From Neodothiora populina (lineage: Eukaryota), in the NCBI RefSeq assembly GCF_041146345.1, contig NW_027191417.1:186001-250000 (forward strand): a DNA stretch of 64,000 bases, in the 5' to 3' direction. Below are positions 2,403 through 6,220 of this stretch, in pieces. A model generated the notes under the pieces. The model saw only the letters and a list, made by a program, of their open reading frames with translations, ran no database searches and had not been told where the DNA came from. Position numbers and translations under genes: made by a program. Numbering within the stretch: the stretch's first letter is position 1; each line of letters starts with the position of its first letter.

Positions 2403-3338
2403 AGAGCTGTGTGTTGTGTCCAACGAACCGTCCAACGGTCCCCGTACTGCGTACATGACCTACAGTACAAGTACACTATCATCGTTCCACCCTTGTAGAT
2501 GATAGACTACCTACCTTACACTGCACAACAATGGAAACCATCCCTGCCAGAACCGACCCGTTACTCTAAAGATGCCGCACTGTAAGCGACCCTTTCCCAT
2601 CCCCCCGCGTTTCGTAATCATTCCCTGCAGATTATTCTCCGTCCAGCCAATCGTCGTTTGCTCTCGCCATAAACTCGCAGATAGGGATGACGTTGCCACC
2701 GGTTCTGACAGCAGCCCGCCGTGGGCCCTCCCTTTTCTCCCCACCCGCCGAAATGAGCTTTTCTGAAACCTCGAGGGCCCGTGTAGTGTACAAACTCTCT
2801 ATGCTGCTCCTACAGCATGATGAGTGATCCTACATACGCGAATTCGAAGTGCTGGACGATCCTCGTAACGATGATTCTCTTGGCACCCTGCGGCGACGAT
2901 GAAACACGATCGACAAACTGAACGTCTTTCTGCCGTACGATGCTTTCGCTTGAAGCTGAATGCTCAGTTTGTGGTTTGATCTACCAATCGCTCGCTACTT
3001 CATCGTACTGCTCTTGACACAATCTAATACTGAACACATCCTAGTCGCCAGACCATGTAGTAAGTAAGTGTACAAAACCGAAGAACCTGGAGTCAGCTCC
3101 TGTATGCAGTGACAACTTGATCTACTGCATGTCCGCTCAACGGACAGGGTCGCCCATTTCCACGTCGAGCGTTCGCCAAACTTTACTGCGATTCAAGCCC
3201 TACAAGTAGGTATTCATCCGCCGACTTGGTAAGGGATCAGCACCCTGGCCTCCGACCACACATGTGCTGAGGTGTTTGTTCCACTTTTAGGAATCGGTAT
3301 TTATTCTGGCACCGTGTCTAGTCGGTGTGTGCTTCATT

Positions 3339-5326
3339 TCACTTTGCTTGATGAAACCTCAACAATTCCTCGGCCATGACCAAACGTGCCCGTCGCTCGC
3401 CAGGCTCGCCATTGCTCTTCTGTTGCTTTTTCATGAAAGTGTTCCATAACACGCTTCTCTCAACTTCTCCATCCAAGTCTATACGCTCGGGACTGATGAT
3501 CTTCATTGCTTTCCGCTCCGGCGTGGCCCATACCCAAAACATCATTCGCTTATCCTTGTCCCCTGACACATAAAATGGTGCGCCAATGCCGAATGGTATT
3601 TGAGACGGAAGAGGTGTATATAATTCTCCGCCACGCTGGACGAGCGTGCGGTAGTGGCGTCCACAATTGCCCCAACTTTTAAACACAAAGACAGCTTGTT
3701 CTGGACCACTGCCTTCCTTGGTCGCATCTTCAGCGAGAGCATGAGCGACAGGTGTTAGAAGACCACTATCGGACACCGAGACTTGGTTTCTAGGATCTAG
3801 AAAGTCGTCGATAGTCCACTCCGTCCAGTCAATATGCCTGCGGCTAAATTCCGACTCCACTTCGAGGTCTGCTGCCACTTCTGAATCCGCGACTTCGGAT
3901 TTGCGATTGCTATCAACATTGTTCGTGAAAGACTCACCAAACGTATTGCTATGTGGGTAGTCTTTGGTTGTCCTGCGTAAATCATCAGTCGAGTGGCCGC
4001 CGATGACATTCCTTGGATACAACTACATCTGGGGATCGGCTGAGATACGGACGCCGTGATCGATCAAGTTCTGGTGCAGACTGCTTGCTTGGACTTTGGT
4101 CTTGCCCTCCATGGTGATGAATTCGGGAGATGCTATCGTGTCGTTTGCAGCTTTGAAGAAGATGCGCCTCTCGGGATCGTCTTTGACCACAATGGGTATT
4201 GCAAGTTTCGTAGATTGTTTACTGCTGTCTTCGGGTCCATCCAAGCCAAGGGCGAACAAGGAGTGGTGATGACGGTTGAGTTCCTGAAAGTCGTGGGTTT
4301 TATTCTTCCAGCCTTGAAAAGTGACTCGCGAGTTTTGTGAGCCATGTGCGATACGAACATCGTTTGACCAAGTACGTCCCAAGACGCGGTCGCGAAGCTC
4401 CATCTCGTCGGCCGTCCAGTCATGCCACATGATCATTCGGTCCTCGGGCTGGATTTTAGCTGCGTGCCGCAACGAGGAAGGAATTTTTCCCGTCATCATT
4501 GCACGCTGTTCATCTTCCTGGGCAAAAGCACCAGTCAAGATATTGCGCTCCAGCATCTCGGCTCCAAGAGGACCGACAAATTGAAGCAGCGATTCCGGCG
4601 TGGCATGATCTAGGCTTGGAATATCCAGACCAGGTTCAGGAGTCTGATCGACAATTCGGCCTTGATCAAAGTGCTTAGGATGTAAGGTCTGCAGCGTCAC
4701 ACCAGTCTTGTTCAGCCGATTCAGCAGGGTATGGTGCAGGGGCGCCGGTCCACGAAGACTATAGCATCACAATCAGAGCATGTTCTGTAGGGAAAGAACA
4801 CAACTTCATACTCAGGCAACATGGATGGATGAACATTAAGACCACCATATTTCGCATTGTTGAGTATGCGAGGTGGGACTAGCAAGCCGAAAGAAACCGC
4901 AACGACAAGATTGATCGGCTCATCGCTAGGTCGAGGAGGTGACCATCGAGTAAAAGTGTCAATCTGATGTATGGGCAGTCCTAGCTCCTCCAGAGCTACT
5001 CTCTTTATTGGTACTGATGCGAGAGCTCAGCGAATGCAGAGGACAACAAGATCTAGATCTAAGTGATTACCTTCTTGGATCTTTTTCAAGCCGCGACCTA
5101 CTCGCTTGTCTGGTTTACAGACGACATCTATCGAGGCAACCTTCTCGGGAAACTTCAATCTGACATCGTTTAGTGCTCTGAGGGAGTAGATGCTAAACTG
5201 GTCTGCTCCGCAGAATAGTACTCTCAGAGGATCGTGTATTGCACCGCTGGACCATCGTTTACCAGAGATCGAGCGGGTGCATGACAGGAAACGGCGACTG
5301 CGCGGTCCTGCAGTAGAGCACAGCAT
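3339..5326 (-). CDS. FMT1: Mitochondrial methionyl-tRNA formyltransferase. Exons 5326-5071, 5013-4812, 4758-4023 give a short form of ~397 aa; 4758-4027 plus 3972-3339 give a long form of ~607 aa
   Basis: Arg/Ser-rich presequence MLCSTAGPRSRRFLSC, then LRVLFCG, DKRVGRG, VAVSFG, the catalytic LNVHPSMLP-DLRGPAPL motif and GVTLQTLHPKHFDQG. Introns restore the frame. The last exon is inferred (see findings). Confidence 0.9.
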
Positions 5327-5477
5327 CACATTACCTACTGCCAGACTGGATACGGAGTAGAGGACACTTGCAGTGGAGGATGAATGCCAAGAGGATGCAA
5401 GCAGAGAGAGAGGTCGATGAGAGTCAAGTTTAGACGGCGTCATCACGTGAGCCTTTCCTCAACGCTCGGACCAACAC

Positions 5478-5545: not shown

Positions 5546-5635
5546 ATTTGTGTGCCTCTTTAGACGACTTTCCTTCTCTCCCATCAACGCCCAGCGATCC
5601 ATCCAGAGTTCTTCTTTCGTCAACTCACCGTCGCC

Positions 5636-6220
5636 ATGTCCAACGTCAAGACCCAGAAGCCCAAGGCCGGCCGCAGCGCCATCTCCGATGTCGTCGCTCG
5701 CGAGTACACCATCCACCTCCACAAGCGTGTATGTAGCTCAGTTTGATGAAGTCCATCAATGGTCGGGCTGTGTATCTGAAAAGAAAAGACCAGCTGGCAT
5801 CGGACGGAAGACTGATTAGAATGTGATTGAATAAAGGTCCACGGTGTTTCCTTCAAGAAGAGAGCTCCTCGCGCCATCAAGGAGATCAAGGACTTTGCCG
5901 AGAAGGCTATGGTATGTTTCTTATTTTTCTTTTCTGCTTGACCACCTTACCATCCTGTTCGCGCACCCCCAAGCAGCGCAGTGAACTGACCTTCTCTTCT
6001 TTCTCTCTCACAGGGCACCCGCGACGTCCGCCTCGACCCCCAGCTCAACAAGAAGGTCTGGGAGGCCGGCATCAAGGGCGTTCCTTTCCGCCTCCGCGTG
6101 CGCATCTCGCGCAAGCGTAACGACGAGGAGGACGCCAAGGAGAAGCTCTACTCCTACGTCCAGGCCGTCAACGTCAAGAACCCCAAGGGTCTCCAGACCG
6201 CCGTCGTCGAGGACGCTTAA
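5636..6220 (+). CDS. RPL31: 60S ribosomal protein L31 (eL31); exons 5636-5728, 5837-5911, 6014-6220
   Basis: Spliced translation [32 protein letters not shown]...DVRLDPQLNKKVWEAGIKGVPFRLRVRISRKRND; GTATGT donors; strong codon bias. Confidence 0.98.

Follow-up and report, generated by a model that had tools for sequence, protein, structure and literature searches.

We analyzed a 64,000-nucleotide (nt) stretch of the Neodothiora populina genome (contig NW_027191417.1 of assembly GCF_041146345.1, positions 186,001 to 250,000; hereafter, the window) and addressed the structure and evolution of locus AAFC00_004477, which is FMT1, the gene for mitochondrial methionyl-tRNA formyltransferase (FMT). 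The gene has four exons and occupies positions 3339–5443 on the minus strand. In its fully spliced form, the protein continues past the usual end of the enzyme into an additional segment (hereafter, the extension), which is, by sequence, a second and much-altered copy of the enzyme's C-terminal domain. Exon 1 (5071–5326) encodes an N-terminus resembling a presequence, together with the beginning of the catalytic domain, and is followed by intron 1 (5014–5070, 57 nt, GTAATC...CAG), exon 2 (4812–5013), which encodes part of the Formyl_trans_N domain, and intron 2 (4759–4811, 53 nt, GTATGA...CTGAT...TAG). The protein junction across intron 1, between KKIQE and VPIKR, matched that of the Aureobasidium orthologue P0015, and the junction across intron 2, between SMLPD and LRGPAP, agreed with orthologues. 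Exon 3 (4027–4758) encodes the remainder of the catalytic domain and, from about position 4448 (PEDRMIMW), the first and original C-terminal domain (C-domain). Intron 3 (3973–4026, 54 nt, GTAGTT...CTGAT...CAG) carries a TAG stop codon (4023–4025) as its bases 2–4, at the place where orthologous FMT1 proteins end. The first part of exon 4 (3846–3972) encodes an acidic linker rich in serine and threonine, which was poorly conserved and contained no conserved alignment columns. The second part (3342–3845) encodes the diverged second copy (SRRHIDWTEWT ... ISPERIDLDG) with a conserved, helix-like C-terminal tail, and the long frame ends at a TGA (3339–3341). A possible poly(A) signal, AATAAA (3300–3305), matched by motif only, lies 34 nt past this stop.

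Two in-frame ATGs, 39 codons apart, could open the gene. The annotated start (5326–5324) gives a presequence similar in length to that of Aureobasidium, and the upstream ATG (5443–5441) would add 39 residues rich in serine and leucine. The products are thus 397 or 607 amino acids (aa) long from ATG 5326 and 436 or 646 aa long from ATG 5443; the open reading frame (ORF) from ATG 5326 with intron 1 retained ends after 99 aa. The 90% identity cluster that holds the protein of this locus consists of three NCBI isoforms, P0133 (607 aa), P0132 (397 aa), and P0001 (458 aa), all of which mapped letter for letter onto the window. The exon coordinates 5326–5071, 5013–4812, 4758–4027, and 3972–3339 reproduced P0133 exactly, and P0132 corresponds to the same transcript with intron 3 left in. 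P0001, which begins at ATG 4822 in exon 2, corresponds to removal of introns 2 and 3 and is missing most of the catalytic domain; it seems to be the longest ORF in a transcript with intron 1 retained. Several isoforms for one locus presumably reflect transcript-based annotation, as is usual. The initial annotation, made from the letters of the window alone, had predicted a 397-aa protein upon retention of intron 3 and a 607-aa protein upon its removal, and both products proved to be public isoforms of this locus. Its description of the second copy as hidden was not borne out, because the spliced form is already in GenBank, RefSeq, and UniRef; the splicing part of the finding is therefore not new. 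In UniRef, P0133 is named methionyl-tRNA formyltransferase, and the cluster representative P0001 is a "hypothetical protein" without a Pfam domain.

The identity of the main part of the protein was supported at several levels. The spliced model was 55% identical over 368 aa to the Aureobasidium "Formyltransferase" P0015 (E-value 2e-127). PF00551 (Formyl_trans_N) scored 25.9 bits on the 66-aa exon 2 piece alone (E 9.7e-6, against a cut-off of 26.1), and it matched 11 of 14 aligned relatives (best E 6.9e-19), with 64.8 bits on P0015. In addition, the profile of the FMT1 part, built from alignment A2, matched solved Met-tRNA formyltransferases (4iqf, E 3.7e-19; 3q0i, E 2.6e-14; 1fmt, E 1.2e-11). 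The motif N-x-H-x-S-x-L-P-x-x-R-G, which we take to be the formyltransferase active-site motif, is present as GGLNVHPSMLPDLRGPAP and spans the junction of exons 2 and 3. By these profile and motif matches, the family as a whole is clearly that of the Met-tRNA formyltransferases. The first C-domain is a putative far-diverged Formyl_trans_C domain (PF02911), and precomputed PF02911 assignments exist for three Aspergillus or Penicillium orthologues.

Beyond the TAG at 4025–4023, the FMT1 frame stays open for 227 codons (4022–3342) up to the TGA at 3341–3339, as the initial annotation had noted. The remaining five frames of this segment contain 7–14 stops each, and the extension frame was open in none of 20,000 mononucleotide shuffles of its 681 nt. 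An independent start for the segment 3339–3972 would make it a gene of its own; the first ATG in the frame, however, is codon 160 of the 227 (position 3545), and with no ATG before this codon the extension cannot code alone in N. populina. The candidate intron around the stop was also recovered at the predicted coordinates 4026–3973. Its branch-like A lies 12 nt from the acceptor, it belongs to the same length class as intron 2 and shares the CTGAT branch motif with it, and its excision rejoins the frame as ...ADPQM/TTKDY, the very junction used by the public spliced isoforms. Read-through or editing of the UAG, which had been offered as another route to the long form, was set aside, as an ordinary intron accounts for the junction in the public models.

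We then compared the extension with FMT1 itself. BLASTP aligned the C-terminal part of FMT1 with the extension at 24% identity over 158 aa (E 0.001, single comparison), and the four motif pairs that had been matched by eye all fell within this one alignment. A hidden Markov model (HMM) built from five extension sequences was run against 121 FMT1 sequences from which the extensions had been removed. The C-domains of N. populina (26.8 bits), P0003 (22.9 bits), and P0013 (18.4 bits) scored highest, and the next best target reached 10.8 bits; nearly all of the other FMT1 targets gave weak matches at the same spot, the C-domain start xDRxIxW..W. The controls peaked at 6.1 bits on 2420 shuffled targets and at 1.4 bits on the 121 reversed ones. 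More importantly, hhalign aligned the five extensions with 16 Dothideomycete FMT1 sequences over 120 columns, all of them within the C-domain, at 97.2% probability (E 3.2e-11). When C-domain and extension were compared within each lineage, three comparisons were significant: P0003 at E 1.3e-5, N. populina at E 1.3e-4, and P0013 versus P0004 at E 1e-3. Thus, pairwise, HMM, and profile–profile comparisons agree that the extension is, as far as sequence similarity can tell, a copy of the C-terminal domain of FMT1 itself that was placed in tandem and has since diverged, as had been proposed. Taken alone, the motif of intron 3 does not exceed chance expectation; both the self-similarity and the open frame do. 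A quick tree was built from 25 C-domains and the five extensions (30 FMT1 sequences had been chosen, of which five without the cutting motif were dropped). In it, the extensions formed one clade (Shimodaira–Hasegawa-like approximate likelihood ratio test support 99) on a long stem of 1.49, adjoining a Dothideomycete C-domain (support 92). One clade on a long stem is what a single duplication would leave if rapid change came first and constraint afterwards.

Relatives of the extension were few. A scan of 1.84 billion representative proteins with the extension returned six matches, namely the N. populina protein itself, four true relatives, and one spurious match. The true relatives, P0002 (234 aa), P0003 (481 aa), P0004 (130 aa), and P0005 (214 aa), matched at E 1e-26 to 1.5e-19, and their extensions were 35–40% identical to that of N. 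populina. The rejected match, P0006 (1356 aa, E 1.7e-6), consists of WD40-like repeats and aligned in 10 short stretches, its repeated W-x-W-x-TPE-like words matching FWVWATPE. In P0003 and in P0011 (528 aa), a member of its cluster, a single ORF begins within the catalytic part of FMT1 and continues through the C-domain and a linker of 75 aa, rich in serine and threonine, into the extension, with no stop in between. P0013 (292 aa) represents part of FMT1, shares 61% identity with the FMT1 part in alignment A2, and ends about 20 aa past its C-domain. The contig behind P0013 and the one behind the extension protein P0004 are both 64870 bases long, so these proteins are probably neighbours on a single contig.

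Outside this group, the extension was not found. A word-indexed protein search with the extension gave no match of similar length, and among longer proteins it gave only the N. populina protein itself (99% identity). Among the 120 FMT1 matches listed of 247, the extension was absent outside N. populina, whose own protein alone covered it; the annotated FMT1 proteins of Aureobasidium and Zalaria, 385–416 aa long, covered about half of the query and lacked it. A six-frame HMM search of 45 metagenomic fungal FMT1 loci, 33 of which have at least 900 nt downstream, likewise found no extension (best score 7.5 bits, mostly on FMT1's own C-domain motif), and a metagenome scan with the extension alignment gave 44 pattern matches, none of which was confirmed. 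The absence from the listed FMT1 matches and from the metagenomic loci indicates that the extension is confined to a small clade. Separately, a 73-aa ORF from Logan (P0134) matched exon 2 with few substitutions and continued into intron 2. As this near-relative sequence exists, such data could be used to estimate the ratio of nonsynonymous to synonymous substitution rates in the extension.

The extension was conserved in a manner expected of a protein. Twenty-one columns were invariant among the five extensions, with the core YRKL.YRG.ELYTPLP...F.IGAPFF.S.DP.KRL.FWVWAD...VVSPE, and the tail ARLV...EL.RFH was conserved in all five; the first copy has no such tail. Between N. populina and P0003, identity was 57% in the catalytic part, 29% in the first C-domain, and 38% in the extension; between N. 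populina and the P0013/P0004 pair, the corresponding values were 76%, 48%, and 40%. Because these between-lineage identities are comparable for the two copies (38% vs. 29%, and 40% vs. 48%), the second copy appears to be as constrained as the first. The initial annotation had taken the open frame, kept despite heavy divergence, as a sign of selection, and this view gained support from the four other lineages in which the frame is kept as protein.

The two copies also differed in charge. Fungal FMT1 C-domains are normally basic, with a median isoelectric point (pI) of 9.1 and an interquartile range of 8.6–9.3 for the 95 C-domains that could be located among the 121 FMT1 sequences. In three extension-bearing lineages, however, the first C-domain had a pI of 6.1, 6.2, or 7.2 (ranks 2, 4, and 9 of 95), and that of P0003 was 5.6 when trimmed of the linker. 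The extensions had pI values of 7.9, 9.4, 6.7, 9.7, and 9.1, four of the five lying within 7.9–9.7. Given an acidified first copy and a mostly basic second one, a basic, RNA-facing role may have moved in part to the distal copy, a suggestion that we offer with low confidence.

How the gene is built, that its two copies are homologous, that the extension is conserved in relatives, and that one relative has the fusion are all established. We further propose that the FMT1 tail was duplicated in tandem, diverged, and came under selection, that the copies were joined by an intron laid over the old stop, and that the long protein is the main functional product; we put the probability of this proposal at roughly 0.7. 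Under this proposal, the 3' part of FMT1, encoding a Formyl_trans_C-type domain, would have been duplicated in the ancestor of a small Dothideomycete clade, and the second copy would have diverged rapidly at first and been under purifying selection since. In N. populina, the old stop would still stand at the end of the first copy, now within the 54-nt intron 3, which may have arisen by intronization around the retained stop. Splicing of intron 3 would yield a 607-aa Fmt1 whose catalytic domain and C-domain are followed by the linker, the second C-like domain, and the short conserved tail, and in which the second copy might serve as an added or replacement module contacting RNA or tRNA. The 397-aa protein from intron-retained transcripts would be a canonical Fmt1 and may be a by-product. 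The long protein is most likely a real, selected product, because it is the sole form possible in the lineage of P0003 and because the extension cannot be translated alone in N. populina.

Several observations weigh against this proposal or parts of it. When the local sequence was shuffled 5000 times, an in-frame span of the form GT..CTRAY..YAG across the stop also arose in 1099 cases, the donor of intron 3 (GAT/GTAGTT) is weak compared with the fungal consensus, and the use of the junction 4027^3972 rests on public gene models and on relatives. PF02911 gave no match at E ≤ 1 to the first C-domain of N. populina (4448–4026) and matched 9 of the 14 related FMT1 sequences weakly (best E 0.0034), and no Pfam family matched the extension at E ≤ 1. 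When the extensions were compared with 59 more distant full-length FMT1 sequences, hhalign aligned only the 18-column RHIDW..W motif (76% probability, P 2e-5). AlphaFold2 models had a mean predicted local distance difference test score too low for use, at 32.8 for the whole of P0001 from a single sequence and 39.6 for the extension from a five-row alignment. P0002 and P0005 are separate ORFs with ATGs of their own on short contigs, so a stand-alone form is possible there. Finally, the argument from charge comes from three related lineages, and the extension of P0003 is not basic (pI 6.7). Beyond these points, searches of PDB sequences with the extension profile returned no solved formyltransferase (best E 0.44, to unrelated chains), and an ESM Atlas search with the extension reached a best score of 0.77, below the level of chance matches.

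The alternative that survives best, also raised in the initial annotation, is that intron 3 is a regulated splicing switch: both products would be functional, the ratio of the 397- to the 607-aa form would be set so as to tune mitochondrial initiation or enzyme location, and the stop would have been kept for this purpose. The annotation of both isoforms at one locus fits a switch, and so does the end of the short form, which stops where orthologues end (13 aa past the aligned region, compared with 9 aa in P0015). The weak donor is likewise in keeping with it, as is the P0013 lineage, in which a stop again follows about 20 aa past the C-domain and an extension ORF lies on a contig of equal size. 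However, the stop-in-intron arrangement is not conserved among relatives: P0013 stops after its C-domain, whereas P0003 and P0011 read through, and with no stop between their copies the short form is not made in that way there, so that a switch would not be clade-wide. An early in-frame stop is expected by chance in any intron, and the 458-aa isoform, apparently a product of intron 1 retention, suggests that the annotation merely records unspliced transcripts. In fungi, moreover, retained introns are the most frequent kind of splicing variant and often lack a function, and an mRNA bearing an approximately 700-nt 3' untranslated region, as the retained-intron transcript would, may attract nonsense-mediated decay. 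We therefore consider a regulated switch unlikely. Rather doubtful, too, is a more far-reaching version, in which the ancestral stop was kept as the first full codon of the intron, one gene gives both a canonical and a two-tail Fmt1, the distal basic copy alters RNA recognition, partner, or compartment, and the 54-nt intron acts as a control point of formylation in a Dothideomycete clade.

A second alternative holds that the extension is a separate downstream gene with its own start, possibly in an unseen upstream exon, and that the fused models are read-through artefacts. P0002 (234 aa), P0005 (214 aa), and P0004 (130 aa) were indeed called as ORFs of their own beginning with Met. Yet, over their N-terminal 50–70 residues, P0002 and P0005 show no conservation and are rich in serine and threonine, like the linkers of N. 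populina and P0003; such linker-like N-termini would be expected if ORF callers took the first ATG that they met past an intron or stop. Furthermore, the window offers no in-frame ATG before codon 160 of 227, P0003 and P0011 are fused in one ORF, and the extension derives from FMT1's own tail; a separate gene is thus very improbable. The last alternative, in which the extension is what remains of a duplication now in decay, still open by chance, with a long isoform that is non-functional, a prediction artefact, or the result of rare UAG read-through, would fit the lack of any family or fold assigned directly to the extension and its absence from most fungi but is scarcely tenable, given a frame open in five lineages at 35–40% identity, in which the core motif is conserved and 21 columns do not vary, the failure of all 20,000 shuffles to remain open, and an extension that is at least as conserved between N. 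populina and P0003 as the first C-domain (38% vs. 29%).

In comparison with known systems, our proposal of a duplicated and selected tail sets the N. populina enzyme apart by its architecture. To our knowledge, Fmt1 is normally a two-domain protein of about 400 aa throughout fungi. The canonical orthologues (Aureobasidium P0015, 398 aa; Zalaria P0014, 385 aa; Aspergillus, about 399 aa) have Formyl_trans_N, the NVHPSMLPDLRGPAP motif, and one C-terminal domain, and the 397-aa isoform is co-linear with them and has the same end. The 607-aa form, by contrast, adds a linker of about 55 aa, a second C-like domain of about 150 aa, and the conserved tail, and its first C-domain is unusually acidic. 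The bacterial enzymes (4iqf, 3q0i, and 1fmt/2fmt), which resemble the FMT1 part by profile (E 3.7e-19 to 1.2e-11), have a single C-domain, and the profile matches to them end at about chain residue 220–244, barely entering that domain. In E. coli FMT, the C-terminal domain is reportedly a beta-barrel that contacts the initiator tRNA. ArnA and related fusions of the formyltransferase fold, to which the FMT1 profile also matched (ArnA chains, E about 2.5e-8), are likewise extended by C-terminal modules; however, the module added in the ArnA type is an unrelated enzyme domain, whereas in N. populina FMT1 it would be a copy of the enzyme's own C-terminal domain.

The arrangement around the stop has parallels as well. 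In fungi, intron retention occurs as a form of alternative splicing, and new introns can bypass a stop after tandem duplication. As in such systems, the intron is short, its retention ends the protein early, and the retained stop marks precisely the point where the ancestral gene ended; a difference is that one FMT1 relative (P0003/P0011) is fused without any stop. Literature searches returned no paper describing a duplicated tail domain in Fmt1. The two-tail Fmt1 thus looks like an unreported architecture, in which a tandem copy of the tRNA-side domain appears to be under selection in a small clade, and it is a real but modest lineage-specific oddity. In a review (PMC3978653), loss of yeast FMT1 is described as mild unless AEP3 is also lost. 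An enzyme as dispensable as yeast FMT1 may tolerate such remodelling.

If our reading is correct, the locus would provide a clean example of gene growth after internal duplication, with the old stop bypassed by an intron in one lineage and missing in another. It would also offer a case for a possible division of labour between duplicated RNA-binding modules, with the first copy acidified and the second basic. In practical terms, the annotation can be improved, as the public proteins are labelled "hypothetical" and Pfam is blank on the 458-aa isoform and on both C-terminal copies.

Two further features were observed near FMT1. Some 900 bases past the FMT1 stop, in the downstream direction, there is a low-complexity purine/pyrimidine run (2179–2502), one frame of which translates as KGRKRKRKRKRE. 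On the opposite side, the gene for ribosomal protein eL31 (5564–6220, plus strand) is divergent from FMT1; PF01198 matched it at E 5.8e-17 on 5990–6217 and weakly on the first exon (5564–5743). The first-exon ORF of eL31 starts about 120–240 bases from the two candidate ATGs of FMT1, and a short promoter region is therefore probably common to both genes.

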